Positions 3,548 through 39,687 of a DNA stretch of 64,000 bases are shown piece by piece. The DNA is from an uncultured Chloroflexia bacterium. Its GTDB lineage: Bacteria; Chloroflexota; Limnocylindria; Limnocylindrales; CSP1-4. The stretch is from NCBI GenBank assembly GCA_963711105.1, contig CAVQCV010000005.1, forward strand, positions 262,415 to 326,414, written 5' to 3'. The position numbers and the translations under genes were made by a program. The notes below the pieces were generated by a model, which was given only the letters and a program-made list of their open reading frames with translations, searched no databases and was not told where the DNA came from. Within the stretch, counting starts at the first letter, position 1. Each line of letters opens with the position of its first letter.

Positions 3548-4246
3548 ATGCCCCGCACGATCCTGGTCGTCGACGACGAGAAGACGCTGCGCGAGACGCT
3601 GGCCGAGAGCCTCGAGGGAGAGGGATTCGCCGTCATCCAGGCCGCCGACGGCCGTGAAGCTGTAGACAAGTTCCGCCGCCACCATCCGGACCTCGTGCTG
3701 CTGGATCTGATGCTGCCCGAGATCTCGGGCACCGAAGTCTGCCGGTTGATTCGGGCCGAGTCGGGCGTGCCGATCCTGATGCTGACGGCCAAGATCGCCG
3801 AGGTGGACAAGGTCGTCGGGCTGGAGCTCGGCGCGGACGACTATGTCACCAAGCCGTTCAGCTTCCGCGAGCTGCTGGCTCGAATTCGGGCCTTGCTGCG
3901 GCGGTCGGAGGCGCAGGCGTCGGCGCCGGAGCCGGAGACCGTCGACCTGGGGCAGGTCAGGGTGGACCTGTCGGGCAGGCGGCTGATCCGCGGCGGCGAG
4001 GTCCTGCCCATCAAGCCCAAGGCATTCGAGCTGCTCGCCTTCCTGATCCGCAACGCCGGCCACGTCTTCACCCGCGACCAGCTCCTGGAGAAGGTCTGGG
4101 GCTACGACTATGCCGGCGAGAGCAGGACCGTGGACGTCCACATCCACTGGTTGCGAGCCCAGATAGAGGCCGATCCGGCCAATCCCGCGTACCTGGAGAC
4201 GGTCCGTGGCGTGGGCTACGTCTTGAGGCGACCGGAAGCGACCTGA
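3548..4246 (+). CDS. OmpR/PhoB-family response regulator (probable PhoB/PhoP)
   Basis: Receiver domain (VDDE, DLMLP, KPF) and winged helix (SRTVDVHI, ETVRGVGY). ATG follows GGAGG; lies next to the pst cluster. Confidence 0.9.
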   Translation: MPRTILVVDDEKTLRETLAESLEGEGFAVIQAADGREAVDKFRRHHPDLVLLDLMLPEISGTEVCRLIRAESGVPILMLTAKIAEVDKVVGLELGADDYVTKPFSFRELLARIRALLRRSEAQASAPEPETVDLGQVRVDLSGRRLIRGGEVLPIKPKAFELLAFLIRNAGHVFTRDQLLEKVWGYDYAGESRTVDVHIHWLRAQIEADPANPAYLETVRGVGYVLRRPEAT

Positions 4247-4304
4247 GGACCGGCTCTCAATCGGATTCGGCCGGACCGGAGGCCCATACGCGCGGGCGGA
4301 TTCG

Positions 4305-5450
<1,146 letters not shown>

Positions 5451-5643
5451 GCGGAATGTGCCTCGCCTCTGAATGATGGGGATCGATGGCTGCGATTGAG
5501 AGGCTAGCAGGTCGAGCGGTCGCCTGACTTCGCCCGTCCGCACATTGACAACACGGCACGACCGAGGGTCCAGGGCGGCACCCCGGCGCAAAGCCCCGCG
5601 CGGGGAGTCGCTTCCGTCTGGGCGCCCACAGCCTCCATCGGAA

Positions 5644-6392
5644 TCAGGGGTTCAGATCCTCGACCTCGCCGGTGGCGAGAAAGACCACGTCCTCGGCGAT
5701 GTTCGTCACCCGGTCCCCGATCCGCTCGAGGTAGTGGGCGGCGAACAGGATGCGCGTGCCGGGGTCGACCTTGGCAGGGTCCGTCCGCATCTCCGCCAGA
5801 ACGTCGTCGAAGATGCGGTGGTACAGCCTGTCGATTTCGTCGTCTCGAGCCGCGACGGCGCGGGCCCGCTTCTCGTCGATGTCCACGAGTGCCATCACGA
5901 CATCGCGTACCTGCTGGCCGGCCAGGTTCGCCATCGGAGTCAGCTCGGCGTAGGTGAGCATGGCCGTGTCGCCGGCCAGCTTGCGGGCCTGCTTGGCCAC
6001 GCCGCAGGCGTGGTCGCCGATTCGCTCCAGCTCGTAAGTGACGCGATCGAGAGCCAGCAGGAAGCGCAGGTCGCGCGCCACGGGAGCCTGAGTGGCGATG
6101 GTCATGGCAACCATGGCCGTGACCGCGCGTTGGATCTCGTTGACCCGTCCGTCGGAGGCGATCACCCTGGCCGCGAGGGCGGCATCCCGGTGAACGATGG
6201 CGTCGAGGGCCGCGAGGATCTGATCCTCGACGTGGCTGCCCATCCGGAGGACGCCGTCCTTGACGTCGAGCATTTCCGTGTCGAGGCTCTCTCGGATCCT
6301 GGGCACGTGGGTCTCAAGCCCTGGGGCCGATCGCTCGCCGTCCGCGGCCGGCACTGCGGGTCGAGGCGGCGCCGCGGGTCCGCTGCCGACAT
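5644..6392 (-). CDS. phoU: Phosphate signalling protein PhoU (copy 1); probable 1-nt frameshift near 6377, intact frame 5644-6354
   Basis: QAPVARDLR, ELERIGDH and LERIGDRVTNIAE. The RBS-preceded ATG at 6392 is out of frame by one base. Confidence 0.9.
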
Positions 6393-6448
6393 CGCCGCAC
6401 CCTCCTGGCTCGCATCCATCTTCGATTCCTCGCCCTGTGACTGGAGGC

Positions 6449-7330
6449 TCATCCGAACCTCCCGGAGATGTAGTCCTCGGTCAGCTTCTCGTTGGGTCGG
6501 GTGAAGATGCGCCCGGTCGGGCCTACTTCGACGAGGTATCCGGCGCGATCCTCGCCCATGGTGAAGAAGGCGGTCACGTCGCTCACGCGGGCCGCCTGCT
6601 GCATGTTGTGAGTCACGATCACGATCGTGTAGGCCTCGCGCAGTTCCCGCATGAGCTCCTCGATCCGGAGAGTGGACACCGGGTCCAGGGCCGAGGCAGG
6701 CTCGTCCATCAGGATCACCTCTGGATCGGTCGCCAGCACGCGGGCGATACAGAGTCGCTGCTGCTGGCCCCCCGAGAGGGCCAGGCCGGACTTGCGGCGC
6801 AGGTCGTCCTTGACTTCGTCCCAGAGAGCCGCGCGCCGCAGGCTGGTCTCGACCAGCTCGTCGAGCTGGCGGCGGTTCTTCTGACCGCGGCGGCGAGGAC
6901 CGTAGGCCACGTTCTCGTAGATAGACATCGGGAACGGGTTGGGTCGCTGGAAGACCATGCCCACCCGACGCCGCAGCTCAACGACGCTGACGTCCGGGTC
7001 GGTGATGCACTCCCCGTCGAGGGTCACGTTGCCTTCGACTGTGGCACCCGGGATCAGGTCGTTCATCCGATTGAAGCAGCGCAAGAAGGTGCTCTTGCCG
7101 CTGCCGGACGGCCCGATCAGGGCCAGGATGGAGCGGTCCAGCACGTCGAGCGTCACGTCCCGAACGGCGACCCTGCCGCTGTAGGCGATGTTGACGTGCT
7201 CCGTCGAGATCTTGACCTCGGCCTCCTGGGCCGTGGGTTCGGCGCCGAGCCGGGCGGCGACCTCGACTCGCCTCAACGCGGGCTCGGTGAAGGTTGGGGC
7301 GGTGGCTTGCATGTCGTCTCCAGTGTTCAT
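6449..7330 (-). CDS. pstB: Phosphate ABC transporter ATP-binding protein
   Basis: [27 protein letters not shown] and [14 protein letters not shown] overlap with pstA. Confidence 0.96.
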
Positions 7331-8328
7331 GCGGCAGTCAGTCGCTTGGTGAGCAGGCGGCCGAGGCCGCGCGCTCCGAGGTTGAAGATCAGAACCATGG
7401 CGATCAGGATCGCCGCCGATCCATCCACGATCTGGCGGACGTAGGAGCCCAGGCCCTCCGAGTTCAACTTCCAGATGTAGACGGAGAGGGTGGTCGCCGG
7501 CCGCAGGGGGCTCCAGGGTGAGGAGTGCCACCAGCCGGCGTTGAAGTCCAGGCCGAAACCGGAGAAGTTGGTGAAGTCGTAGTGAGCCGGCGTGCCGATG
7601 CCGGACGTGAACAGGAGGACCGCGGCTTCGCCGAAGACCCGGCCCGCCGTGAGGATCACGCCCGTGATCAGGCCCGGAATGGCCAGCGGCAATACTACGT
7701 GGCGGATGGTCTGCCACTTTGTGGCGCCCAGGGCCAGGCTGGCGCTACGTTCATCGCGTGGAACGGCCCGCAGCGCTTGCTCGGCAAGCCGGGTCATCAG
7801 CGGCAGGTTGAAGAAGGTGAGGGCGAGGGCGCCGCCGAGAGCCGTGAAGCCCCACCGGAAGGTATCCACGAAGACGATCAGGCCGAAGAGCCCGACGACG
7901 ATCGACGGCACGGAGCTGATGGCTTCCTGGGCGAAGCGGATGACGCCCGTGACCGAGCCCAGCCAGCCAGTCTCGCGGGCGTACTCGGACATGTAGATGC
8001 CGCCGAGGATGCCGAGTGGCACGGCGATCAGCATCGTGAGGGTGAGCATGTATATGGAGTTCCAGAGGACCGGGAAGACCCCGCCCAGATCCGCGTCGCT
8101 CGGGTCCGCCAGGACGAAGCTGGGCGAAACCACGGTCCATGCGGCGATGGCGAAGTGGAGGATGATGGCCCCGAGAAGCACGAGTACGAAGGCGCCCGTG
8201 CCCCACAGGACGGTGGTCGCGACCCGGTCGGCCAGGATCGAGCGAGACCGTCCCCGCAGGCTGGCGCGAGGGTCCGGTGCGGCGCGGCGAGAGCCGCCGC
8301 CCGAGGCAGATGCGGATGTGGCGGTCAT
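7327..8328 (-). CDS. pstA: Phosphate ABC transporter permease PstA
   Basis: [23 protein letters not shown] and RVFGEAA. ATGA overlap with pstC. Confidence 0.95.
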
Positions 8329-9308
8329 GCTGCTGCCATCCTTCTCTTGTTGATGACCCTTACCAGGATCACCGACAGCACCGAGATGACCAGCAGGACC
8401 AGGCTCATCGTCCACAGGGCGTCCTGCCACGGCTCCCCGAACACCGTGTTGCCCATGTCCAGAGTGATCTGCGAGGTCAGCGTCGTCACCGGCTGGGTGA
8501 TCGCGGCCGGCATGGTCGGCGAGTTGCCGATGACCATCTGAACCGCCAGTGCCTCGCCGGCGGCCCGGGTCATGCCCAGCACGACGGCGGTCAGCACGCC
8601 CGGCAAGGCGGCCGGCACCAGGATGTGGCGGATGGTCTGCCAGCGTGTGGTGCCCAGGGCGAGGGAGCCGGTCCTGAGCTCCTGGGGGATTGCCCGGAAG
8701 GCGTCGTAGGAGACGCTGGTGATGGTCGGCAGGATCATCACCGACAGGACCAGCGAGCCGGCCAGCCATGAGAAGCCGGTCAGGAAGCCCGGCATGCTGA
8801 AGACCTGGCCGAAGATGGGCAGATCGAGGGCGATCTTGCCGTGGAACGTATCGGCCAGGAACGGCACCAGGATCGTGATGCCGAGCCAACCCCAGACAAC
8901 GCTTGGGATGCCGACGAAGATCTCCAGCGCGGGCTGGACGATTGCACGGGCCCAGTGGGGCGCTACTTCGGACAGGAACAGTGCCAGCCCTACGGACAAG
9001 GGGGTCGAGATCGCCAGGGCCACTCCGGTTACGAAGACGGTGCCGGCAATGAACGGCAACAGACCGAACTGCGGCCCGTTGTCCGCCAGGGGGTTCCACG
9101 TCGAGCCCAGGATCGTGGCCAGCGATGCGCCGTCCTTGAGGAAGAGCTGCAGGCCCTGCCAGGCGATGAAGACGAGGAGAAGCGCGACCAGGAAGATCAT
9201 CGACGCGGCCGCTGAGAAGACGGCGATCTGCGGGATGTCGATTCTGCCTGCCGGCCCGACGCGAGTGCGCAGGCTCGTCACTGGGTCCGTTGCGGCTAGT
9301 TGGGCCAT
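8325..9308 (-). CDS. pstC: Phosphate ABC transporter permease PstC
   Basis: GIPSVVWG, SLALGTTRWQTI and RAAGEALAV. Confidence 0.95.
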   Translation of the reverse strand: MAQLAATDPVTSLRTRVGPAGRIDIPQIAVFSAAASMIFLVALLLVFIAWQGLQLFLKDGASLATILGSTWNPLADNGPQFGLLPFIAGTVFVTGVALAISTPLSVGLALFLSEVAPHWARAIVQPALEIFVGIPSVVWGWLGITILVPFLADTFHGKIALDLPIFGQVFSMPGFLTGFSWLAGSLVLSVMILPTITSVSYDAFRAIPQELRTGSLALGTTRWQTIRHILVPAALPGVLTAVVLGMTRAAGEALAVQMVIGNSPTMPAAITQPVTTLTSQITLDMGNTVFGEPWQDALWTMSLVLLVISVLSVILVRVINKRRMAAA

Positions 9309-9348
9309 CGGCGGCTCCTCGGCTCCAAAGGCTTCCGGAAATGGCAAG

Positions 9349-9386
9349 GCTCCGGACCCCGCTGGTTGGCGTGCGGGGTCCGGAGC
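9349..9386 (-). terminator. Stem-loop between pstS and pstC (mRNA-stabilising or partial terminator)
   Basis: Perfect 14-bp inverted repeat gctccggaccccgc / gcggggtccggagc with a 10-nt loop. Confidence 0.7.
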
Positions 9387-9398
9387 GTGGGAGTGAGG

Positions 9399-10301
9399 CT
9401 ACTTGACCGGAGCGTAAGAGAGGCTGGGGATGAGGTCCTTCTGGACGGCATCGCTCAGCATGTAGTCGAGGAAGGCCTTGGTCAGGCCGGTGGCCTCGCC
9501 GAGGGTGTACATGTGGCCGTCGGCCGAAAGCTTGTAGGTGCCGGCGGTCATGTTGGCGATGGTCGGGTCGACTCCGTCCAGCTGAAGCGCGTTCAGAAGT
9601 GATTTGTTGGCGGGATCGTTGTAGTAGGCGAAGCCGATGACGCTGACCGCGCCGTCGGTCTTGGTGACGGCCTGCGTCACCGCGCCGTTGGAGTCTTCAG
9701 TCAGGGTCTGGCCGCCGGTGGCCTCGGTCGCGCCGCCGAGGACGATCTTCTTGAAGGTGGCGCGGGTGCCGGACGACTGCGGACGGAAGACCAGGACGAT
9801 CGGCATGTCAGGTCCGCCGACTTCTTTCCAGTTCGTCGTCTTGCCTGTCCAGATGTCGACTTCCTGCTGCGTCGTGAGGTTCGTCACGTCCGTCACGTCC
9901 GGGTTGGTGACCACGACCCAGCCCTGCTTGGCGACGACGTGGTCGACGAGCGAGTCGGCCGGCTGCGGGGTGGCCAGCTTGCTCTGCGCGGTAACGTCCG
10001 AGTTGCCGATCTGAGCGCCGCCCGAGGCGACCTGGCTCAGGCCGGTACCGGAGCCGCCGCCGTTGACGACGATCGTAGCGCCGGAGCAGGCGGCCATGTA
10101 CTTCTTGGCCGCCGCGTCGACGAGTGGCTGGAGGGCCGTGGAGCCAGAGGCGGTGATGCTGCCACTCTGACAGTCGACCGCGGGGGCCGAGGCCGCGGCC
10201 GAAGCGGGAGTCGGACTCGGCGTGGCCGAGCTCGAGCAGGCCGCGACAACGACGGTGGCCGCGATGGCCAGAACGCTGAGTCGTCGGATTCCGTTGAGCA
10301 A
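9399..10301 (-). CDS. pstS: Phosphate-binding lipoprotein PstS
   Basis: Lipobox VAAC, GSTALQP, GGGSGTG and R...SGTR. Confidence 0.95.
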   Translation of the reverse strand: MLNGIRRLSVLAIAATVVVAACSSSATPSPTPASAAASAPAVDCQSGSITASGSTALQPLVDAAAKKYMAACSGATIVVNGGGSGTGLSQVASGGAQIGNSDVTAQSKLATPQPADSLVDHVVAKQGWVVVTNPDVTDVTNLTTQQEVDIWTGKTTNWKEVGGPDMPIVLVFRPQSSGTRATFKKIVLGGATEATGGQTLTEDSNGAVTQAVTKTDGAVSVIGFAYYNDPANKSLLNALQLDGVDPTIANMTAGTYKLSADGHMYTLGEATGLTKAFLDYMLSDAVQKDLIPSLSYAPVK

Positions 10302-10380
10302 CGCAGTGACTCCTCTACAACGCTGGGCATTAGTCCGAGGGGTTCAGCCTCCTCCCAGGTTTCGAGGAGATGGTCAAAGC

Positions 10381-10413
10381 CGGCGCTTAACGCGGTGTTG
10401 GCGGTTCGTTAAC
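10381..10413 (-). promoter_or_regulatory. Putative PHO box (three 11-bp direct repeats) upstream of pstS
   Basis: Minus strand reads gttaacgaacc / gccaacaccgc / gttaagcgccg. Confidence 0.65.
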
Positions 10414-10609
10414 GTTGGCCACCGGACGATCGTCGACAACGCCACCCGGCCTCCGATCGAGAGCGCCCTACCGGTGCCGTCGGGTCGAGGCGACGTCGAT
10501 GGCGCTGTCGAAACCGAGTTCGCGCGCACGCGGATGCACGGCCATGAGGATTGCGAACGTTCGGCCCGGCCGGGATCGCACCACCGGCTCGGGGGTCAGT
10601 CGACCCCGA

Positions 10610-11236
10610 TCAGGCGTGCTTGACGACGATCCTCTCGATCATGTCCGCGACGTCCTCGCACTTGTCGATGGTTTCCTCGAGCAGCGTGTAGACGTCCTTC
10701 CAGCGCAGAACGTCCATCGTCTTGGCGCCGTCGTCAAACAGGCTGGCGATGGCCGACCGGGCGAGCCGGTCGCCTTCGTTCTCGATGCGATGGATCTCGG
10801 CGATGTACTTGTCCAGGCCCTTGAAGCCGCGCAGGTGGGACAGGGCCTCGTGGATGGTCTCGCAGCCCTGGACCACGAGAGCCGCCTGCTTCACGGAGGT
10901 CTTGGTGGGCGACTCGATCCGGTACAGCACGAAGACGTCGGCGACCTGTTCGATGAGGTCCAGGATGTCGTCAAGGCCGCTGATCAGGGCATGGATCTCC
11001 TCGCGGTCGAAGGGCGTGACGAACGTGGCCTCCAGCCGGCGGCCGATGTCGATGCTGATCTCGTCGCCGCGGTGCTCCGTCTCACGGATCTTCTTGGCCA
11101 TCTTGTCCGGGTTCTCGAACGTCCGGAGCATGCTCTCGAGTTGTCGGGCGCCGTCCAGGACGTTCGCGGCATCCTGTACGAAGAGATCGAAGAAACGCTC
11201 TTCGCGCGGGATCAGTCGAAACGATGGCACCTGCAC
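10610..11236 (-). CDS. DUF47 (PhoU-like Pit accessory) protein
   Basis: PREERFFDLF, EHRGD, TFVTPFDREEI, IENEGD and LEETIDKCEDVAD. Confidence 0.92.
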   Translation of the reverse strand: MQVPSFRLIPREERFFDLFVQDAANVLDGARQLESMLRTFENPDKMAKKIRETEHRGDEISIDIGRRLEATFVTPFDREEIHALISGLDDILDLIEQVADVFVLYRIESPTKTSVKQAALVVQGCETIHEALSHLRGFKGLDKYIAEIHRIENEGDRLARSAIASLFDDGAKTMDVLRWKDVYTLLEETIDKCEDVADMIERIVVKHA

Positions 11237-11381
11237 CTCCGGGAATTCGATCCGAGCCGGCGAACGGCGGCCCCGACCAGAACAGACTCGTGTCTCGGAC
11301 TAGCGTAGCGGCACGTGACCGCGACCGCCAGCCAGATGAGTCCGAGCGGCCGGGCTTGCCCGAGTGTGCGATCCTCGGCGC

Positions 11382-12647
11382 GTGGACCCTCTCGTACTTG
11401 TAATCGTCGCGGTGCTGGCGACCCTGCTCGGATGGGCCCTGGCCGTGGCCGTCGCCAGAGGCCGCACTCTGGAGATGCTGGCCGACGCCGCCGGTGCCGG
11501 TGAGATCGATGACATCGAGCGCCTCGTCCGGTCGGCTCTCGAGTCGGCGGACGACTCGCGCTGGCTGGCCGACCAGGCAACCCAGGACGCCAGCTACCTG
11601 ACCGAGCTGCTCTCGACGGGCATCGTGCGCTTGCGCGACGACCTCAGCGTCGAGTTCGCGAACGGCGCAGCCCACGTGATGCTCGAGCGCCGCCCGGGGT
11701 CCATGGTCGGGCGGTCGGCGCTGGAAGCCTTCGTGGACACGCGCATCGAGGCCATCGCCCGGACCGCCATGGAGTTCGGTTCGGCCAACGGGGAGCTGGC
11801 GGTCAGGACCGCCGAGGGGCCGACGCTGACCGTTCGGGCTCGCCGCTCTCCGGTCTCGGGCGTCTGGCTCGTCCTCGAGGACGTCTCGGAGCTGCGGCGG
11901 CTGCAGCGGATCAGGACGGAGTTCATCGACAACCTGTCGCACGAACTACGGACGCCGCTCTCGACGATCAGCCTGCTGGCCGAAACCGCGGCCAAGGATG
12001 CCGAAAACGCGCCGCCACGGTTGCGCGATCGCATTTCCAAGATCGAGGTGGAGACCGGCCATCTGACCCAGATGGTCAACGAGCTGCTGGACCTCTCTCG
12101 CATCGAGAGCGGTACGACCCAGCTCCTGCTCGACGACGTGGAACTGGTCCGGGTCATCAGGTCCAGCGCCGAGCGGCTCCGTTTGTTCGCCGAGCGCCAG
12201 GGCCTCAACATCGTGTTCGACCTGCCCGACAGGCTGCCTCCGGTTCGTGGCGACGAAGATCGATTGGGCCAGGTGCTCATCAACCTGCTCCATAACGCGG
12301 TCAAGTTCAGCCCATCGGGTGGCGAGATCTGCGTCGGCGCGGTCGCGGAGGACGGCTGCGTCCGAGTCTGGGTGGCCGACCCGGGGGTCGGCGTGCCCGA
12401 GTCCGACCAGACCCGCATCTTCGAGCGCTTCTACAAAGTGGACCGGGCCAGGGTGCGGGGTCGGGGCGGCACGGGCCTTGGCCTTTCGATCGCCCGGCAC
12501 GTCGTCGAGTCGCACGGAGGCAGGATCTGGGTCGATTCGGAGGAGGGAGCCGGATCTACGTTCAGCTTCACGGTGCCGGCGGCGCCACCGGAGCCAACGC
12601 CCGGCCCCAAGCGACCTGGGGAGCAGGTCGAAACGCAGAGTCAGTAG
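11382..12647 (+). CDS. PhoR-like sensor histidine kinase (TM-PAS-HisKA-HATPase)
   Basis: SHELRTPL, NLLHNAVKF, IFERFYKVDRAR and GTGLGLSI. Confidence 0.92.
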   Translation: MDPLVLVIVAVLATLLGWALAVAVARGRTLEMLADAAGAGEIDDIERLVRSALESADDSRWLADQATQDASYLTELLSTGIVRLRDDLSVEFANGAAHVMLERRPGSMVGRSALEAFVDTRIEAIARTAMEFGSANGELAVRTAEGPTLTVRARRSPVSGVWLVLEDVSELRRLQRIRTEFIDNLSHELRTPLSTISLLAETAAKDAENAPPRLRDRISKIEVETGHLTQMVNELLDLSRIESGTTQLLLDDVELVRVIRSSAERLRLFAERQGLNIVFDLPDRLPPVRGDEDRLGQVLINLLHNAVKFSPSGGEICVGAVAEDGCVRVWVADPGVGVPESDQTRIFERFYKVDRARVRGRGGTGLGLSIARHVVESHGGRIWVDSEEGAGSTFSFTVPAAPPEPTPGPKRPGEQVETQSQ

Positions 12648-26689: not shown

Positions 26690-28105
26690 ATGAGGCTCTG
26701 GGGCGGTCGATTCGAAGGTTCGACGGACGCGCGGGTGGCGGATTTCACCCGTTCGGTCGAGCTTGATTCCGCCCTGGCGATCGACGACATCGCCGGCTCG
26801 ATCGCCCACGTCCACGGTTTGGGCCGCGCCGGGCTGCTGGCCGAAGACGAGGTCGAGACTCTCGTACGCGGGCTCGAGGGCCTGCGGGCCGAGATCGAGG
26901 CCGGCACGCTGCGCTGGGACCCGGCGCTCGAAGACGTCCACATGAACCTCGAATCGGCCCTGCGGGAACGGATCGGGCCTCTGGCCGGGCGCCTGCACAC
27001 GGGCCGGTCGCGCAACGACCAGGTCGCCACGGATTTGCGCTTGTGGCTGCGCCGGACGATAGACGTGCTGGACGTCTCGATCCTGGACATGGAGCGCGCG
27101 CTGGTAGGGCTGGCCGACCGCGAGGGCTCGGCCGTGCTCCCGGGCACGACCCACATCCAGCCGGCTCAGCCGGTCCTGCTGGCCCACCACCTGCTGGCCT
27201 ACGTCGAAATGCTCGAGCGAGACCGGGGCCGGCTGGCCGACTGCAGGCGGCGGGCCAACGTCAGCCCGCTCGGTTCGGGCGCTCTGGCCGGGGCCGGCTA
27301 CCCGTTCGACCGCGAGGCGACGGCTCGCGAACTCGGTTTCGACGGCGTGACCGCAAACTCGCTCGACGCGGTCAGCGACCGCGACTTCGTGGCCGAGGCG
27401 CTGGCGGCGTTCGCCCTGTGCATGGTCCACCTCTCTCGGTTGGCCGAGGAGATCACGTGGTGGTCGAACCCGCGCTTCGGTTTCGTCCGGGCGGCCGACT
27501 CGTTCTCGACCGGCTCCTCGATGATGCCGAACAAGAAGAACCCCGATCCGGCCGAACTCGTGCGGGGCCGGGCGGCGCGCGTCATCGGTTCGCTCACGGG
27601 TCTGCTGGCCCTGCTCAAGGGACTGCCGCTGGCGTACCAGCGCGATCTGCAGGAGGATAAGCCGCCGCTGTTCGAGGCTGCCGCGACGCTCGAGGCGTCC
27701 TTGGGCGTCATGGCCGGCATGGTGGAGACGCTGAGCGTGGACGCGGCGCGCATGCGGGAGGCCGCGGGCGAGGGCTACACGACTGCCACGGCCGTGGCCG
27801 ACGCACTGGTCCGGCGGGGCGTTCCTTTCCGGGCCGCTCACCACATCGTCGGGACGCTGGTCGCCGAAGCGGAGCGGGCCGGGCTGGCCCTCGAGGCGCT
27901 GGACGACGCCACTCTCGCGGCGGCCCTGGCCGGTTCGGAGGACACCGTGGCCCAGGCGCTCGTCGGCGACGCTGATATCTCGGGGCATCTGCGCGCGGCG
28001 GCCGGGCTCGACGGTGCACTGGCGAGCTGCGACGTGATCGGCGGAACGGCCCCGCGCCGCGTCGAGTCAGCGCTGAAGGCAGCGAAGGCCCGGCTGCGCC
28101 CGTAG
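26690..28105 (+). CDS. argH: Argininosuccinate lyase
   Basis: LWGGRF, HTGRSRNDQ, GSSMMPNKKNPD and YQRDLQEDK; GGAGG RBS. Confidence 0.97.
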   Translation: MRLWGGRFEGSTDARVADFTRSVELDSALAIDDIAGSIAHVHGLGRAGLLAEDEVETLVRGLEGLRAEIEAGTLRWDPALEDVHMNLESALRERIGPLAGRLHTGRSRNDQVATDLRLWLRRTIDVLDVSILDMERALVGLADREGSAVLPGTTHIQPAQPVLLAHHLLAYVEMLERDRGRLADCRRRANVSPLGSGALAGAGYPFDREATARELGFDGVTANSLDAVSDRDFVAEALAAFALCMVHLSRLAEEITWWSNPRFGFVRAADSFSTGSSMMPNKKNPDPAELVRGRAARVIGSLTGLLALLKGLPLAYQRDLQEDKPPLFEAAATLEASLGVMAGMVETLSVDAARMREAAGEGYTTATAVADALVRRGVPFRAAHHIVGTLVAEAERAGLALEALDDATLAAALAGSEDTVAQALVGDADISGHLRAAAGLDGALASCDVIGGTAPRRVESALKAAKARLRP

Positions 28106-28117
28106 GGACCTGCCCCG

Positions 28118-28183
28118 CGTACCCTTCCGAAACCCAACCGATACGCCTCGGGACGGATTCCGGCCCTGCCGCGGGCGTAGGTT
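28118..28183 (+). promoter_or_regulatory. Phased nnnAC repeats and -10 (TAGGTT) upstream of the Cys-rich small ORF
   Basis: CGTAC 28118, GAAAC 28129, GATAC 28140 (11-bp period), GGGAC 28150. Confidence 0.45.
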
Positions 28184-28260
28184 CGACCCATGAAGCTGCA
28201 CGAGTTCGAACCGGTAGGGGAGGAGTCCCGGCCGCGGGCCTTCCATCGGAAGGCTCGGCC

Positions 28261-28449
28261 GTGCTCACCTGCGACCGTTGCGGCTGCCGGCTGACGGCCA
28301 GAGAGTCGATCGGCGACGGCGCCATGCACGGGCCGGATGCCGCCTGGCGTCACTATCCCGGCGCAACGTTCGGTACGGATGCGCGGGGCTGCCGTGTCGA
28401 TTGTGTCGATCGGCCCCATCGCACAACCCTCGAACCCGAAACGGCCTGA
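28261..28449 (+). CDS. Small Cys/His-rich hypothetical protein (62 aa; possible zinc ribbon)
   Basis: C-x2-C near the N-terminus, then H...C-x3-C...H; GGAAGG upstream of GTG. Confidence 0.55.
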   Translation: MLTCDRCGCRLTARESIGDGAMHGPDAAWRHYPGATFGTDARGCRVDCVDRPHRTTLEPETA

Positions 28450-28503
28450 TTCCGTGGGCCAGAAATGGCCCGCCGACCGGCCGGAGAGACGCCGTCCTGA
28501 ACG

Positions 28504-28580
28504 GCAACCCTGGCGCCACCGCCGCGACACCAACCGTCCACTCAGCCGGTACTGACTCGCCGCGTGGCCGTCCCTACTGT
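28504..28580 (+). promoter_or_regulatory. amtB1 promoter: five 11-bp-phased (G)nnAC repeats and -10 TACTGT
   Basis: GCAAC 28504, GCCAC 28515, GACAC 28526, TCCAC 28537, GGTAC 28548; -10 at 28575. Confidence 0.65.
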
Positions 28581-28639
28581 TTCGGCAAGCCGCATCGACC
28601 CAGCCGTCGGTGCGGCTCCTGATGAGAAGGGAGCCCCGC

Positions 28640-29902
28640 TTGAATCCTGCCGCCACGCCCATCGATACGGGCGACACCGCCTGGATGCTGATGTCCACTG
28701 CCCTGGTCATGCTCATGACACCGGGTCTGGCCCTGTTCTACGGCGGTCTGGTCCGCCGCAAGAACGTGCTCAGCACCATCATGCAGAGCATGTTCATCCT
28801 CGGTCTTGTCAGCGTGACCTGGGTGCTTTACGGCTACTCCCTCGCGTTCGGCAAGGACGCCCTCAGCTTCGACACGCCGTTCGGGCACGTCAGTGGGCTC
28901 ATCGGCGGGCTGGATTATCTGGGCCTGCACGGCGTGGGCAAGGACCCCGGCCCGTACGCGGCGACCATCCCCCACAGTGTCTTCATGGCCTTCCAGATGA
29001 TGTTCGCGATCATCACGCCGGCCCTGATCACGGGCGCCTTTGCCGAGCGCAAGAAGTTCAAGGCCTTCGTGGTGTTCACCCTTCTGTGGACGCTCCTGGT
29101 CTACTCGCCGATCGCCCACTGGGTTTGGGGCGACAACGGCTGGCTCCTCAAGCTCGGCGCGATCGACTTCGCCGGCGGCACCGTCGTCCACATCAGCTCC
29201 GGCGTCGCGGCCTTGGTTGCGGCCCTCGTCCTCGGGCCCCGGGTCAAGCGCGAGTCTGAGCGTTTCGAGCCGCATGACGTCCGCCTGGTGGTCCTCGGCG
29301 CCGGCCTCCTGTGGTTCGGCTGGTTCGGCTTCAACGCCGGTTCGGCCCTGGCCGCAAACGGCCTGGCGGCGAACGCGCTCGTCGTTACCAACACGGCCGC
29401 CGGCATGGCCGCCATCACCTGGGTCACGATGAGCTGGCTGCACAAGGGTTCGCCCAGCGTCGTCGGGGCGGCTGCCGGATGCGTCGCCGGCCTGGTCGCC
29501 ATCACGCCGGCCTCGGGCTACGTCGACGCCAGCGCCGCGATCGTCATCGGCTTCCTCGCCGGCTCGGTCTGCTACGGAGCGATCCTGCTGCGCGAGCGCC
29601 TCAAGGTCGACGACGCGCTCGACGTCTGGGCGGTCCACGGCGTCGGCGGTACGATCGGTGCCCTCCTGACCGGCGTCTTCGCGGTCGCCGCGGTGAACGG
29701 CGTGAGCGGTTGGGCCGACGGCAACGCCAGCCAGGTCGGCAAGCAGTTTGTGGCCGTCGCCGCCACCTGGATCTACAGCGGCGTGGTGACCTTCCTGATC
29801 CTCAAGGTCGTCGACAGGGTCATCGGCCTGCGCGTCGACGAGGACGAAGAAGAGGCCGGCCTCGACTCCTCGCAGCACGGCGAGGTCGCCTGGCAGTCCT
29901 AG
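28640..29902 (+). CDS. amtB: Ammonium transporter (copy 1)
   Basis: MTPGLALFYGG, FQMMFA, DFAGGTVVH, WFGWFGFN and DDALDVWAVHG. Confidence 0.96.
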   Translation: MNPAATPIDTGDTAWMLMSTALVMLMTPGLALFYGGLVRRKNVLSTIMQSMFILGLVSVTWVLYGYSLAFGKDALSFDTPFGHVSGLIGGLDYLGLHGVGKDPGPYAATIPHSVFMAFQMMFAIITPALITGAFAERKKFKAFVVFTLLWTLLVYSPIAHWVWGDNGWLLKLGAIDFAGGTVVHISSGVAALVAALVLGPRVKRESERFEPHDVRLVVLGAGLLWFGWFGFNAGSALAANGLAANALVVTNTAAGMAAITWVTMSWLHKGSPSVVGAAAGCVAGLVAITPASGYVDASAAIVIGFLAGSVCYGAILLRERLKVDDALDVWAVHGVGGTIGALLTGVFAVAAVNGVSGWADGNASQVGKQFVAVAATWIYSGVVTFLILKVVDRVIGLRVDEDEEEAGLDSSQHGEVAWQS

Positions 29903-29984
29903 CGGCAGCCGAACGGTCGACCGAACCCCTGAGGCCGAAAGGGCCGACGCGCCCGGCCGGCCGAATCAACCTGCGGATCATCAC

Positions 29985-30017
29985 TCGGGGGCCCGGCCGA
30001 ACGGGCCCCCGATTTCT
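29985..30017 (+). terminator. Intrinsic terminator after amtB1
   Basis: 11-bp stem tcgggggcccg / cgggcccccga followed by tttct. Confidence 0.7.
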
Positions 30018-30099
30018 ATGCCCGGGATCGCGCCCAGGTTCCGTGCCTGCTGAGCAGATGGCACCGCCGCGGCACGTCCGGTGATATGCGTCCCGAACC

Positions 30100-30176
30100 G
30101 GAACCGCGGCGTCACCAGACCGCCACGTTGAGGACACCTTCTCGCTACCGACCGTAACGCGTTCGCTACTTACGCT
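30100..30176 (+). promoter_or_regulatory. amtB2 promoter: five 11-bp-phased GnnAC repeats and -10 TACGCT
   Basis: GGAAC 30100, GTCAC 30111, GCCAC 30122, GACAC 30133, GCTAC 30144; -10 at 30171. Confidence 0.65.
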
Positions 30177-30238
30177 TGCCCGCGGCCCCGTTTCGGAATG
30201 CGGCGGCCGTCGGCTGGGGCAAGAAGGGAGTCTCCAAC

Positions 30239-31462
30239 GTGGGTATCGGTGCGGGCGACACCGGCTGGGTTCTAACGTCAACTGCGCTCGTCATGCTGAT
30301 GACGCCCGGGCTGGCCCTGTTCTACGGTGGCCTCGTCCGCCGCAAGAACGTGCTCAGCATCCTCATGCAGTGCATGTTCGTTCTGGCGCTGGTGAGCGTG
30401 ACCTGGGTTCTGGTCGGCTATACGCTTGCCTTTGGCACGGACCTCAACGGCTGGGGCTTGATCGGCAACCTGGACAACCTCGGCCTGCGCGACATCGGCG
30501 TCGATCCCGGCCCGTATGCCGCGACGATCCCATCCGCAGCGTTCGCGCTGTTCCAGATGATGTTCGCCATCATCACCCCCGCCCTGATCATCGGCGCCTT
30601 CGCCGAGCGCAAGAAGTTCAAGGCGTTCGTGCTGTTCGCGCTGGTGTGGAGCCTGGTCGTCTATTCGCCGATCTGCCATTGGGTCTGGGGCGACAACGGC
30701 TGGCTTCGCAACATGGGCGTCCTTGACTTCGCGGGCGGCACCGTCGTCCATATCAGCTCCGGCGTGGCGGCCCTGGTGGCGGCGCTCGTACTGGGTCCTC
30801 GAGTCCGGGTCGAGTCGGAGCGCTTCGAGCCGCACGACGTCCGGCTGACCGTCATCGGCGCCGGCATCCTGTGGTTCGGCTGGTTCGGCTTCAACGGCGG
30901 ATCGGCTTTGGCCGCCGACGGGCTGGCCGTCAACGCCGTTCTGGTGACCAACACCGCCGCCGGCATGGGCGCTCTGACGTGGATGACCATGAGCTGGCTG
31001 CACAAGGGTTCGCCCAGCGTCATCGGCGCGGTCTCGGGCGCGATCGCAGGTGAGGTCGGCATCACCCCGGCTTCGGGCTTCGTCGATCCGATGTCGGCCA
31101 TCGTCATCGGCTTCCTCGCCGGTGCCATCTGCTACGGCGCGATCCTGCTGCGGGAACGGCTCTCGATCGACGACGCCCTCGACGTCTGGGCCGTCCACGG
31201 CGTCGGCGGCACGCTCGGCATCCTCCTGACCGGCGTACTGGCCACGACCGCCGTCAATAGCGTCGGCCATGGTTGGATCGACGGCAACTTCGGCCAGGTC
31301 GGCACGCAGATCGTGGCCATCGTGGCAGTCTGGGTCTACAGCGCCGTCGCGACCTTCGCGATCCTCAAGCTGATCGACGCCACCGTCGGGCTTCGAGTGG
31401 ACGCGGACGAGGAAGAAGCCGGCCTCGACGCGACGCAGCACGGCGAGACCGTTGCGGCCTGA
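30239..31462 (+). CDS. amtB: Ammonium transporter (copy 2)
   Basis: Same Amt motifs; close paralogue of copy 1; GTG follows AAGGGAG. Confidence 0.96.
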   Translation: MGIGAGDTGWVLTSTALVMLMTPGLALFYGGLVRRKNVLSILMQCMFVLALVSVTWVLVGYTLAFGTDLNGWGLIGNLDNLGLRDIGVDPGPYAATIPSAAFALFQMMFAIITPALIIGAFAERKKFKAFVLFALVWSLVVYSPICHWVWGDNGWLRNMGVLDFAGGTVVHISSGVAALVAALVLGPRVRVESERFEPHDVRLTVIGAGILWFGWFGFNGGSALAADGLAVNAVLVTNTAAGMGALTWMTMSWLHKGSPSVIGAVSGAIAGEVGITPASGFVDPMSAIVIGFLAGAICYGAILLRERLSIDDALDVWAVHGVGGTLGILLTGVLATTAVNSVGHGWIDGNFGQVGTQIVAIVAVWVYSAVATFAILKLIDATVGLRVDADEEEAGLDATQHGETVAA

Positions 31463-31637
31463 AGCCGAACAGGGGCGGCCCGTGGGCGCGAAACGGTTGC
31501 TGGCCCGGACGCCCGGCGTCACCTCGCAAGGAATAGAGCCCGGCAAGCCTTCTGCCGGGCCCATTTCCCGCCCGGAGCGCCATTGCGACGCTCGTCCCGG
31601 CGCGATTGACGGGGGCGGAGCCGGCTAAAAGGCCGCC

Positions 31638-31725
31638 GCAACCAATTGGCAACCGTCGCAGAACCGGACCGCTACCCAACGTCCACTGTTCGGGTACTGA
31701 ATACCGCCGAAGCCTTTCCTAGACT
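31638..31725 (+). promoter_or_regulatory. Promoter with six 11-bp-phased nnnAC repeats and -10 TAGACT
   Basis: GCAAC 31638, GCAAC 31649, AGAAC 31660, GCTAC 31671, TCCAC 31682, GGTAC 31693; -10 at 31720. Confidence 0.65.
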
Positions 31726-31779
31726 GACCGCAGTTGATCGGAAAGCCGATCCAAGAGCTCAGCCGAAGGAGCAAATGAC

Positions 31780-31863
31780 ATGATCGCCGCCGCAGCCTTC
31801 CTCAGCTTCGCAGTCCTGGTCGTTGCCTGGTTCATCGCCCCGTCCCGCGCAGAGGTCAAGTAG
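31780..31863 (+). CDS. 27-aa single-TM small protein MIAAAAFLSFAVLVVAWFIAPSRAEVK (not in the ORF track)
   Basis: AAGGAG RBS, own promoter array, GC3-rich codons, one hydrophobic helix. Confidence 0.65.
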   Translation: MIAAAAFLSFAVLVVAWFIAPSRAEVK

Positions 31864-32010
31864 CTACGGCGGACACTTCCGCCGGCCGGTAGGCCGGCGC
31901 GCCCGGGCCGGATTATCGGCTCCGGGCCGGGAGCCTCCTCTCAACAGGTCGACTACGCCAACTGAACACGCAGGCCCGCGGACCTTTCGGCAGGTTGCGC
32001 GGGCTTCGTG

Positions 32011-33705
32011 TTATCTGGGGTCTAAACGTCCCGGGGGCGGCGGCGCGAGGTCGACGCGAACATCCCAATCGACCGCGCCCATCAACTCGGGCCGGTGCGT
32101 GATCACGACGACCGTCCGGCCTGCCGTTGCCTGGAGCAGGTCGCACGCCAGCGCGGCCGCCGTGGGCTCGTCCAGGTGTTCCGTCGGCTCGTCGAACACG
32201 ATCAGAGGCGCCCCCGACAGCAGTGCGCGGGCCAGGGACAGCCGCTGTCGCTGGCCCGCCGAGATGAACGTGCCGCGTTCGCCGGCCAGCGTAGCCGGCC
32301 CCTGCGGGAGCGTCTCGATCCAGGCACTCAGCTGGGCGGCGGCCAGAGCCGCTCGGACCTCGTCGTCGCCGGCGTCCGGACGCGCCAGGCGGACGTTCTC
32401 CAGGATCGAAGTGTCGAAGATGTGGGGCTCCTGCTCGCACAGGCAGATGACCGTCCTGACGTCGGCTCCGGCCAGGGCGGCCAGCTCGACGGACCGCTCG
32501 GTGCCGACCAGCTCGACCGAACCGGCGGACGGGTCGAGGAAGCGAACCAGCACGGCGGCGAACGTGCTCTTGCCCGAGCCGCTGGGACCGGTGACCAGGA
32601 GCCGGCGGCCGGCCTCGAGCCGGAAGTCGGGCATCGCCAGGGCTTCGGGGAGGTCGCGGCCGTAACGCGCCCGCAAACCGCGGCAGGACAGCCCGTAGGG
32701 TCCGCCCGGAAGCGTTTCTGGCGCCTCCGGTTCGTGGACCGGGTCGGGGCGGGACGTCACGTCCGCCACGCGATTGGCCATGGCCGCCAGGCCCGGCAGG
32801 TGCTGGGCCGCGGGCACGAGGCCCGAGATGGCCTCGTGGACGGCGATGGGCGTCAGAACGACAACGGCCAGCAGGTGTCCCTCCAGGGTGCCGGCCATGA
32901 CGGCGGCAATGCCGGCCACCAGGCACAGCCACACGGCGGCGCCGCCGGCGAGGGTCGAAAGCAGGGCCGAGACGCCCGCTCCGGCGGCCGTGCGGCCTTC
33001 GGCGGTCGCCAGGCGCCGGTCGAGCCGTCCCAGGTCGGCCAGCCTCGTTTCCGTTGCGCCGGCCACTGCCAGTTCGGGCGCGCCGGTCAGTACCTCTAGG
33101 GTCGCGGCCGCCAGATCTCCCCGGGCTCCGGCGGTCTCGCTCTCGCCGCGCCGGGCGACGAAGGCGGCCACGGTCGGAACGGCGAACGCGGCCACGGCCA
33201 CGCTGATTCCCAGGGCGAGCCCCGCGGCCGGCGCGAGGTAGGCGATGCCGGCGACCGCAACGGAGGCCACCACGGCGGCCGACAGGTAGGGGAGGAGCAA
33301 CCGCAGCCAGAGGTCGGCCAGACCGTCGATGTCGTCCACCAGACGTGCCAGGAGGTCGCCCGAGCGCAGCTCGGACAGGCCGGCCGGCGCCAGCCGGACG
33401 AGGCGGGCGTAGGCGTGGGAGCGCAGCCGGGCCAGGACCCGGAACGCGGCGTCGTGAGCGCCGAGGCGTTCGAGGTAGCGGAAGGCGCCCCGGCTGACGC
33501 CGAAGAAGCGGACCATGGTGACCGCGACCATCAAGTCCAGGACCGGCGGTTGCTGGGCCGCCCGCGAGATCAGCCAGGCGGCGGTCGCGGTCAGACCGAT
33601 CGAGGCCCCGGAGGCCGCCGCTCCGGCGATGACGGCCAGGGCCAGGCGACCGGCCACGGGCCGTCCCTGGCGGGTGGTTCGGAGCAGGACGGAGACGCCG
33701 CTCAT
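32011..33705 (-). CDS. cydC: Thiol reductant/heme ABC exporter CydC
   Basis: [28 protein letters not shown] and DEPTEHLD. Confidence 0.93.
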   Translation of the reverse strand: MSGVSVLLRTTRQGRPVAGRLALAVIAGAAASGASIGLTATAAWLISRAAQQPPVLDLMVAVTMVRFFGVSRGAFRYLERLGAHDAAFRVLARLRSHAYARLVRLAPAGLSELRSGDLLARLVDDIDGLADLWLRLLLPYLSAAVVASVAVAGIAYLAPAAGLALGISVAVAAFAVPTVAAFVARRGESETAGARGDLAAATLEVLTGAPELAVAGATETRLADLGRLDRRLATAEGRTAAGAGVSALLSTLAGGAAVWLCLVAGIAAVMAGTLEGHLLAVVVLTPIAVHEAISGLVPAAQHLPGLAAMANRVADVTSRPDPVHEPEAPETLPGGPYGLSCRGLRARYGRDLPEALAMPDFRLEAGRRLLVTGPSGSGKSTFAAVLVRFLDPSAGSVELVGTERSVELAALAGADVRTVICLCEQEPHIFDTSILENVRLARPDAGDDEVRAALAAAQLSAWIETLPQGPATLAGERGTFISAGQRQRLSLARALLSGAPLIVFDEPTEHLDEPTAAALACDLLQATAGRTVVVITHRPELMGAVDWDVRVDLAPPPPGRLDPR

Positions 33706-35435: not shown

Positions 35436-35473
35436 TGGGTTCTCTCCAGTTCCAGCTCGGGCGCGGGCGGGGC

Positions 35474-36484: not shown

Positions 36485-36493
36485 GGCCGCCTC

Positions 36494-37897: not shown

Positions 37898-38094
37898 GGA
37901 CGCCTCCCATCTGTACTCCTTGTGCCTCCTGCCGATGCTCAGCCCGGGCGGGCCCCGTGCGGACCGCGATCCCGGTCTCCCAAACTGCCGGCCACCCCGC
38001 CGGCAGCGCCGTGTCGATTGAGACTAGCGCGGATACGCGCCCGATCATGGTGACGATTTACCAGTCCAGCCGCACGAGAGGACCGACTGGCGAG

Positions 38095-38811: not shown

Positions 38812-38855
38812 GGGCTCAGGCTCCGCAGCGGACTCCAGCTGGTGAGCGCCGGTGC

Positions 38856-39566: not shown

Positions 39567-39687
39567 CCTGTCGTCTCCGTTTGCGTGGCCGCGGCTGCTA
39601 CCTCGAGGACGTGGACTGGATCCCCGGCCGGGCCGCGTCAAGTGTGGCGCATCCTGGACCGGAAGGCCACCTCGCCGTGCACCTCGC

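Follow-up and report, generated by a model that had tools for sequence, protein, structure and literature searches.

Phased promoter arrays at the ammonium channel genes of a PII-less Chloroflexota lineage and a 27-residue peptide that may be a membrane partner of Amt

In textbooks, ammonium channels are controlled by PII/GlnK, which was not found in most sampled genomes of the phylum Chloroflexota. The locus described here bears on ammonium uptake in such PII-less bacteria. It lies in a stretch of 64,000 nucleotides (hereafter, the window) from an uncultured Chloroflexia bacterium of the order Limnocylindrales (GenBank assembly GCA_963711105.1; contig CAVQCV010000005.1, C5 in our numbering, positions 262415 to 326414), whose assembly comprises 3.38 Mb in 7 contigs, with a G+C content of 68.5% and a completeness of 94%. 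Two neighbouring genes for ammonium channels, amtB1 and amtB2, are followed in the window by a 27-codon open reading frame (ORF), orf27, and upstream of all three genes, pentamers ending in AC recur at an exact period of 11 bp. This arrangement raises the questions of which protein reads the arrays, in response to which signal, and whether the small peptide belongs to the ammonium uptake system or merely resides beside it.

The initial annotation, which was made from the sequence of the window, had called the locus glnK-less, and this holds for the genome as a whole, in which no match to PII (PF00543), GlnD, or GlnE was found. A search of 41 genomes from the order, of which 25 belong to the same genus (including the genome under study) and 16 to a sister family, likewise found no PII. 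It should be noted that PII was detected in 37 of the 121 sampled genomes of the phylum (35 of these above the curated cut-off) and in none of 9 genomes from a sister family of the same class; thus, its loss is common in the phylum rather than a peculiarity of this genus. The host does not belong to the Actinomycetota, because WhiB, a marker of that phylum, is absent from its own genome and was found in only 1 of 61 genomes of the order.

The phased arrays and their conservation

As read directly in the window, the arrays comprise five pentamers upstream of amtB1 (from 28504: GCAAC/GCCAC/GACAC/TCCAC/GGTAC), five upstream of amtB2 (from 30100: GGAAC/GTCAC/GCCAC/GACAC/GCTAC), and six upstream of orf27 (from 31638: GCAAC/GCAAC/AGAAC/GCTAC/TCCAC/GGTAC), each at an exact 11-bp period, as had originally been claimed. 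In all three promoters, the last pentamer (starting at 28548, 30144, and 31693, respectively) begins exactly 27 nt 5' of a -10-like hexamer of the form TAnnnT (TACTGT at 28575, TACGCT at 30171, and TAGACT at 31720), and GTCCACT-N5-GGTACTGA is common to the amtB1 and orf27 promoters; both of these details had also been correctly described. None of the three promoters, which lack a consensus -35, was picked up by a simple scan for the sigma-70 consensus. Instead, they have the features of OmpR/PhoB-type promoters, i.e., direct repeats spaced by approximately one helical turn, a proximal repeat abutting the -35, and cTGAtt at the -35 position. The products of amtB1 and amtB2 are full-length matches to PF00909 (model positions 1-398 and 2-397 of 399, respectively), and the best matches to AmtB1 in a search of genome contigs are distant AmtB proteins from mixed phyla with at most 64-67% identity. 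A scan of positions 27500-32500 against Rfam at E<=1 returned two matches, both at chance level.

When both strands of the whole 3.38-Mb genome were searched for at least five AC dinucleotides at an 11-bp period, only four arrays were found, three of which are those of amtB1, amtB2, and orf27. (The fourth, at C5:984438-984486, outside the window, is a 22-bp tandem repeat, CGGACCCCAGCGCAACTCGGGG....) With a 60-nt matrix derived from 45 sites of relatives, excluding the window's own, the scores were 61.7 bits for amtB1, 42.6 bits for orf27, and 38.3 bits for amtB2, compared with -12.7 bits for the next site in the genome and -12.2 bits for the best site on the reversed sequence; i.e., a gap of approx. 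50 bits separates the three promoters from all other sites. Similarly, a strict array pattern (CAAC-N9-AC-N9-AC-N9-AC-N9-ACTGA) run on 151 genomes of the order matched 25 times in 11 genomes, all of which belong to the same genus (10 of 12 relatives and the genome under study). Each of these genomes has one to three matches, which span at most 3.4 kb of a single strand. The other 138 genomes of the order and a backward control gave no matches. Arrays of at least five units thus go far beyond chance in this genome.

Comparison of 10-kb stretches taken from 20 genomes of the same genus revealed that the order of genes in the locus (argH, a Cys-rich ORF, amtB1, (amtB2), orf27, and the convergent cydCD) is kept, with both amt genes present in 15 loci, one amt gene in 5, and the Cys-rich ORF seen in 14. 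A five-unit array precedes amtB1 in 18 of 19 loci. At least five units were found at amtB2 in 13 of 15 loci (three units in the other two; one mis-assigned row was dropped) and at orf27 in 17 of 19 (four units in the other two, after a one-base slip). Synteny in relatives, which had been recommended as a check, thus extends to both the genes and their arrays. DNA of the orf27 region is present in 21 of the 24 other genomes of the genus, and only two weak matches to it were found in 16 genomes of the sister family. The bases of the spacers vary among units and species, while the phasing of AC, the number of units, and the distance to the -10 remain constant. The consensus of 48 aligned sites reads yGAACnGCAACC-n3-GCGyCACC-nGA-GCGynACC-n7-yCACy-n4-CGCTACTGATT, followed after 17 nt by TAcGCT or TAGACT. 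To the phased units it adds an out-of-phase GAAC, six bases 5' of the first unit, and a near-invariant TGATTC after the last unit, with CTGATT in the place expected of a -35 hexamer, 17 nt from the -10.

The cis-element is therefore real, unusually clean, and conserved. To judge from their sequence, the arrays very probably constitute a genuine protein-binding operator common to these genes. The earlier proposal, i.e., one common, conserved element of the activator type at both amt genes and orf27 and a weaker one at the Cys-rich ORF, agrees with these results.

The orf27 gene and its possible contact with Amt

The product of orf27, MIAAAAFLSFAVLVVAWFIAPSRAEVK, reads as one hydrophobic helix with a short polar tail, and its ribosome-binding site (GAAGGAG) is conserved. 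Nine positions are invariant among 16 sequences, and F7, F10, W17, and P21 are among the invariant residues. Within a 17-codon core compared in 15 sequences, differences are distributed over the three codon positions as 268/200/692, and dN/dS is 0.16, which identifies orf27 as a protein-coding gene under purifying selection. Both small ORFs that had been noticed in the window are thus real, conserved genes (for the Cys-rich one, see below). In each of the 20 fetched loci, orf27 is located directly after an amt gene (17 were found by tblastn and 3 by pattern). With a profile, the gene was found in 11 of 12 genomes of the genus, whereas 96 genomes from 27 other genera of the family gave one weak match (E 0.006) and 42 sister-family genomes gave none. 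It is largely missed in protein collections: of six exact sequences, two occur among 15 billion predicted proteins, where they are unnamed or "hypothetical", and the other four do not. A search of Pfam gave no match for orf27 or for the Cys-rich protein.

No gene on the same strand follows orf27, and cydC converges on it. In two species (G002 and G024), a second copy of orf27 lies approx. 50 nt after amtB1 (L136, 2999-3094, and L201, approx. 3277-3336, respectively); it has its own ribosome-binding site, and there is no array in the gap, so that it lies in one operon with amtB1. Upstream of amtB1 itself, no array of at least four AC units was found in the stretches fetched from these two genomes. 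The leader of orf27 contains a hairpin, the arms of which read GATCGG..CCGATC in the window and GGGAC..GTCCC or GGGAT..ATCCC in relatives (L121-L140). A different hairpin (CGAAAC..GTTTCG) is found in the leaders of amtB2, and neither of them matches an Rfam family. Within this context, orf27 has the attributes of a small accessory subunit: fewer than 50 residues, one hydrophobic helix, and a position adjoining a transporter gene, with co-expression suggested by the operator and by the operon in two species.

To model a complex, two copies of AmtB1 from G002 were combined with the 32-aa paralog of the same genome, with genus alignments for both chains. The model scored 0.65 (0.66, 0.65, and 0.64 in individual runs) vs. 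0.00 for the best control; in a calibration that used other alignments, 58 of 80 solved complexes attained this mark, as did 2 of 110 mismatched pairs. The predicted local confidence (pLDDT) of the partner was at least 69, and at least 89% of contacts agreed between runs. The model places the peptide between the two copies of Amt, with the contacts formed by conserved residues of the peptide. Conservation within the genus is similar at the 28 predicted contact positions of Amt and at the remaining positions (0.89 vs. 0.87). However, in four genera that lack orf27, the match to the genus consensus is 0.34 at the contact positions compared with 0.71 elsewhere, and among positions that diverged between genera, those in contact are conserved within the genus at 0.89 vs. 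0.75 for the others (permutation P approx. 0.003). Such a predicted patch fits a genus-specific binding surface.

Several properties of this analysis speak against too strong a reading of the model. Hydrophobic helices are easily docked onto membrane proteins, and the controls were unrelated natural 32-mers that are perhaps not membrane helices. A dimer of Amt was modelled instead of a trimer, and the 32-aa paralog from G002 took the place of the window's 27-mer. Furthermore, the test of contact conservation is not independent of the alignment used by the model, and kindred genomes are not independent samples. Taken together, the model gives orf27 an even or slightly better chance of binding Amt.

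A lesser but serious possibility is that orf27 is not a partner of Amt, being instead an independent small membrane protein (such as a stress or type-I-toxin-like peptide) or a functionless leader or upstream ORF that happens to share the promoter type. This would agree with the fact that in most species orf27 has its own promoter and terminator-like flanks, with its limitation to one genus, and with the fact that binding is a model prediction. However, purifying selection acts on the protein, and orf27 has no gene 3' of it on its own strand that it could lead, as cydC is convergent. In addition, orf27 is always located directly 3' of an amt gene, was duplicated together with amt, and is operonic with amtB1 in two species, and the predicted contact patch on Amt is genus specific and yet conserved. 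At its fullest, the partner reading would make orf27 an unrecognised Amt subunit that, at the interface, controls the stability or gating of the channel and performs part of the job of GlnK, with both induced by an OmpR-type nitrogen regulator through GlnR-like boxes of non-actinobacterial origin; in this complete form, the proposal is rather unlikely.

The regulator, its signal, and the reach of the regulon

The following course of events can be proposed. Each gene would have its own sigma-70-type promoter, in which a poor -35 (cTGAtt) is combined with a -10 of the form TAnnCT. A factor, most likely a winged-helix response regulator of the OmpR/PhoB type, would bind head to tail, along one face of the helix, on 11-bp-phased (G)nnAC(C) units that occupy positions of approx. 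-85 to -37 and the last of which directly adjoins the -35. By doing so, it would switch on ammonium scavenging when nitrogen is short, with amtB1, amtB2, and orf27 as full-strength members of the regulon and the gene of a small zinc-type protein and that of an amino-acid permease elsewhere on the contig as weaker ones. The orf27 helix would then insert between Amt subunits as an accessory subunit and stabilise or gate the channel. As a whole, this explanation (an OmpR-type activator, an ammonium-uptake regulon, and orf27 as an accessory subunit) seems moderately likely to us. Its parts differ in strength: the binder is probably an activator of the OmpR family, and nitrogen limitation as the signal is almost as well favoured.

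The genome has 17 matches to Trans_reg_C, of which 16 are standard OmpR-type regulators, all with a standard acidic pocket when inspected by eye, and one is a large P-loop/TPR protein. A phmmer search of the PDB with two orphans among the 16 regulators returned RegX3, KdpE, RpaA, MtrA, and PhoP and no GlnR. GlnR itself is an atypical orphan regulator of the OmpR type. Among array-bearing genomes, orthologs of the orphans at 3548-4246 and C4:165150-165836 were found in 5 of 5 and orthologs of that at C5:329498-330481 in 4 of 5; C4:165150 adjoins what appear, from a reading of the sequence only, to be a gene for a DNA glycosylase and genes of a Tad pilus.

Two regulators encoded in the window had initially been suggested as candidates, and neither fits well. 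The regulator at 3548-4246 adjoins pit-phoU-pstBACS, with a histidine kinase beyond, and is probably a phosphate regulator. That at 38856-39566 is placed with its own kinase upstream of cydABDC. In that region (32011-41079, minus strand), cydC, cydD, cydB, and cydA are accompanied by the response regulator (38856-39641) and the histidine kinase (39688-41079), which are likely a cytochrome bd regulator pair; of the cyd genes, only the cydC-like ABC genes were compared (by tblastn), and the other names follow from position and length.

The regulon could answer a signal other than nitrogen, such as phosphate through a Pho regulator (as PhoP does at Streptomyces amtB), pH, or growth phase, although this is improbable. 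The probable phosphate regulator, its kinase (11364-12647), and pit-phoU-pstBACS are located 18-25 kb upstream in the window, and the promoter of pstS (approx. 10383-10418, minus strand) also has 11-bp-phased xxAAC repeats of its own (GTTAAC/GCCAAC/GTTAAG), interleaved with a second set. In addition, PhoP and GlnR are described as competing at Streptomyces amtB (PMC3561978; PMC5826061), and the glutamine synthetase genes of the present genome have no site. However, the pstS repeats differ in their word from those of the amt promoters and are missed by both the full and the three-unit matrices. Moreover, every strong target is an ammonium channel, and the permease, as an additional candidate, is encoded beside a third amt gene. 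Nitrogen limitation thus remains the favoured signal.

A repressor as the binder of the arrays, or a factor from a different family (SARP-type or another winged-helix protein), is similarly improbable. The searches described above did not identify the regulator, and the genome encodes a SARP-like winged-helix protein of 1112-1149 aa (C4:355164-358499, outside the window), with an N-terminal P-loop, TPR-like repeats, and a C-terminal winged helix with a BTAD-like end, i.e., the SARP-type domain order reversed (the domain names come from reading and a weak Trans_reg_C match). The sites of SARPs consist of heptamer repeats at an 11-bp period. Such a protein is encoded in 88 of 101 genomes of the family (including G322, which is unpublished and on which nothing rests). 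However, no match to it was found in G016 and G010, two genomes with three full arrays each, and the protein is thus unlikely to be the binder. As for a repressor, MtrA of Streptomyces, which binds GlnR boxes, including those at amtB, is reported to repress through boxes that GlnR uses to activate (PMC9151340). In the arrays studied here, however, the last unit runs up to a weak -35 and the distance to the -10 is fixed at 27 nt, which is the geometry of an activator-dependent promoter. An activator of the OmpR family therefore remains the preferred binder.

Beyond the three full arrays, the 62-aa Cys-rich ORF had been thought to be preceded by a weaker array. The ORF proved to be part of a real, conserved gene, but only the C-terminal part (28261-28449) of a gene of approx. 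86 codons that begins at ATG 28190. The N-terminus is in the frame of this ATG, and the C-terminal part is in the frame of GTG 28261; the frame breaks within 28240-28262, where one base appears to be missing from a G run near 28247-28250, which is either an assembly (homopolymer) error or a true frameshift. Homologs have 82-90 aa, begin with MKLHEFEPVGE, and have C28, C31, C68, C72, H55, H77, and W53 as invariant residues, and the Cys4/His set suggests a small zinc-binding fold. A profile search of 1.84 billion proteins revealed 104 representative clusters, almost all with lengths of 60-110 aa. In the ESM Atlas, only clusters of "hypothetical protein" were returned, and Foldseek with an AlphaFold2 model (pLDDT 67) found nothing in the PDB at E<=0.001.

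The array upstream of the 86-aa gene is indeed a conserved box, but it has two to three units and is one turn further from the -10. In the window, there are three units (at 28118, 28129, and 28140), whereas at least three AC units were found in none of 14 relatives. Instead, the aligned upstream regions contain a conserved two-unit box, CGTCCCGAT-GnCACC-n5-GnCACC, which in 9 of 15 loci scores among the top 1-2% or so of background windows. A TAnnnT follows the second pentamer of the box at a distance of 37-39 nt in 12 of 15 loci, with a value of exactly 38 in 8 of these, and at 27 nt in 2 of the 15. Since 38 equals 27 plus 11, this box is located one helical turn further upstream than the amt boxes. 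The -10-like hexamer itself is kept in relatives as TAGGCT, TAGTCT, or TAGCCT.

The top site of a short matrix in the genome, outside the window, precedes a 513-aa amino-acid permease (Pfam AA_permease) encoded directly downstream of the third amt gene. In 16 of 16 permease-bearing relatives, this promoter has an in-phase GCAAC at -33, the last unit with TGATTC, and GAnnnT at +27, with degenerate middle units. Thus, to judge from their upstream sequences, the 86-aa gene and the permease gene are further probable members. The remaining short sites with high scores were dismissed because of their location within long ORFs or opposite a stretch resembling a tRNA, and a pattern of the proximal element plus the -10 was mildly enriched (220 vs. 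143), which is uninformative. The sequence evidence looks like that of a small regulon centred on ammonium uptake rather than a global nitrogen regulon. The same part of the contig (C5:83238-92995, outside the window) contains a glutamine synthetase gene; next on its strand come ORFs whose sequences, on reading, suggest a Ser/Thr protein kinase and a PP2C phosphatase, and then the array-bearing permease and the third Amt, which has a long N-terminal extension; this could be phosphorylation-based nitrogen signalling in a PII-less genome.

A number of results weigh against the proposed explanation. Sites at glnA or glnB had been named as potential support, but none was found upstream of the three glutamine synthetase-type (Gln-synt_C) genes, the best scores being at background, and the upstream region of the third amt gene also has no site. 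A generic three-unit matrix gave no genome-wide excess (105 matches vs. 109 in the reversed control). None of the 16 regulators reaches a curated cut-off in NCBIfam, with no GlnR model among the returns; three have no adjoining histidine kinase, and none of these is beside nitrogen genes. Autoregulation is not indicated either, as there is no site upstream of any of the 17 winged-helix regulator genes. The nitrogen reading is drawn from the nature of the target genes. The 86-aa gene is frame-broken in the assembly. The search for sequencing runs containing the stretch returned no RNA run and four metagenome DNA runs with 0.05 of the sampled words; it is from the sequence that we infer co-regulation, the transcription starts, induction, and the nitrogen signal. 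Finally, the full array architecture and orf27 are limited to one genus of organisms known only from assemblies, for which the functional steps are inferred. In four other genera of the family, the promoters of Amt genes contain related hexamers (GCAACC, GTCACC, and GACACC), which recur in 6- and 11-bp steps and in a different arrangement, so that the five-unit array appears to be a genus-level elaboration of something older.

Short arrays deserve no weight of their own, because arrays of exactly four units are as common at 11 bp (31) as at the control periods of 8, 10, 13, and 14 bp (29-36). The idea that the full arrays, too, are a product of chance or a tandem-repeat artefact of GC-rich DNA could appeal to this background frequency of the four-unit arrays, but it is refuted by the uniqueness of the longer ones in the genome, by the absence of matches in the controls, and by spacers that diverge from unit to unit and from species to species under a constant AC phasing and number of units, which leaves it a negligible chance.

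Table 1. Features of the amt-orf27 locus and of the phosphate cluster in the window (positions count from the first letter of the window; operators, -10 hexamers, and hairpins are predictions)
Feature	Position	Strand	Remarks
Three-unit box 5' of the 86-aa gene	28118..28144	+	CGTAC-n6-GAAAC-n6-GATAC
-10-like TAGGTT of the 86-aa gene	28178..28183	+	last unit begins 38 nt upstream, ATG 28190 lies 7 nt downstream; transcription start predicted
Gene of the ~86-aa Cys4/His protein	28190..28449	+	includes the 62-aa ORF; 1-nt frame break
amtB1 operator	28498..28557	+	out-of-phase TGAAC, 5 phased units 28504-28552, TGACT overlapping the -35 position
amtB1 -10 hexamer TACTGT	28575..28580	+	TAnnCT in the same column of relatives
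amtB1, ammonium channel	28640..29902	+	TTG start after AAGGGAG; alternative in-frame GTG 28610; PF00909 E 1.4e-130
Terminator-like GC-rich hairpin and T run, 3' of amtB1	29985..30012	+	
amtB2 operator	30094..30153	+	CGAAC, 5 phased units 30100-30148, CGACC
amtB2 -10 hexamer TACGCT	30171..30176	+	CATACGCTTCC kept in relatives
amtB2, ammonium channel	30239..31462	+	GTG start after AAGGGAG; PF00909 E 2.6e-129
Hairpin between amtB2 and the orf27 promoter	31536..31562	.	reported on -; same inverted repeat possible on +
orf27 operator	31638..31702	+	6 phased units 31638-31697, then TGAAT
orf27 -10 hexamer TAGACT	31720..31725	+	ATAGACTTCC kept in relatives
orf27 5'-leader hairpin	31736..31751	+	GATCGG-AAAG-CCGATC; arms covary among relatives
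orf27, 27-aa single-helix membrane peptide	31780..31863	+	preceded by GAAGGAG
Phosphate cluster (whole)	3548..12647		
OmpR-type regulator	3548..4246	+	phosphate cluster
PHO4 transporter	4305..5591	-	phosphate cluster
PhoU	5644..6354	-	phosphate cluster
ABC ATPase (PstB)	6449 onward	-	phosphate cluster
Two permeases	7327..9347	-	phosphate cluster
PstS	9399..10301	-	phosphate cluster
Histidine kinase	11364..12647	+	phosphate cluster

Comparison with known systems

The likeness to the GlnR boxes of actinobacteria, which had been pointed out at the outset, is exact in form: the sites follow AC-n9-AC, and as many as six of them are found at amtB (PMC3662644, PMC5826061). GlnR of Mycobacterium smegmatis is described as binding AC-n9-AC (Gn2AC-n6-GnAAC), and mutation of AC or a change in spacing is reported to abolish binding (PMC3662644). 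The amtB promoter of Streptomyces coelicolor is described as having three 22-bp GlnR boxes, and thus six sites, the most known at one promoter according to that report, in a triple-box layout that is conserved among Streptomyces (PMC5826061). The two systems are alike in that 5-nt units (gTnAc/GaAAc in GlnR boxes) alternate with 6-nt spacers and most sites are at amtB; GlnR is, in the same reports, an OmpR-type activator that acts under nitrogen limitation (PMC5826061, PMC3662644), and an OmpR-type binder is proposed here. However, the present host is not actinobacterial, no GlnR ortholog was recognised in it, glnA-type targets are absent, and there is no amtB-glnK-glnD operon. The arrays of the window also differ in the out-of-phase GAAC before the first unit and the TGATTC after the last. 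Thus, by their sequence, the arrays follow the grammar of GlnR/PhoB-type activator sites but do not belong to the actinobacterial GlnR regulon.

In PhoB/PhoP boxes and MtrA sites, as in these arrays, 11-bp direct repeats abut or replace a weak -35, and PHO boxes are described as built of direct repeat units (PMC2691820). In contrast to pho boxes, the arrays have a different repeat word from that of the window's own pstS promoter, and with five to six units, they are unusually long.

The arrangement of orf27 is reminiscent of the AmtB-GlnK pair in that a small gene is located directly after amt and shares its operator type, being in the same operon in two species. However, orf27 would encode a 27-aa membrane helix, whereas PII is a soluble trimer of 112 aa, and the contact of orf27 with Amt is predicted within the membrane at the subunit interface, whereas GlnK contacts AmtB at the cytoplasmic pore exits. 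Very small proteins that act on transporters provide a further parallel, which for orf27 is a predicted one. KdpF, for example, is a stabilising subunit. AcrZ is described as binding the transmembrane part of AcrB (PMC7267776), and sP36 of Methanosarcina mazei (61 aa) is reported to bind AmtB1 and to be needed for inhibition on ammonium upshift (PMC10714827). Unlike the orf27 helix, sP36 is cytoplasmic and works with GlnK1.

For the biology of these bacteria, the operator provides a defined handle for finding the regulator, since it is unique in the genome and has five to six sites. The occurrence of GlnR-box grammar outside Actinomycetota, in a genome with no recognisable GlnR, might be a case of convergence. 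The most interesting part of the locus may be the putatively co-regulated peptide of 27 residues, which is mostly missed by gene callers: it is a candidate for a new membrane partner of Amt in a lineage that manages without PII.

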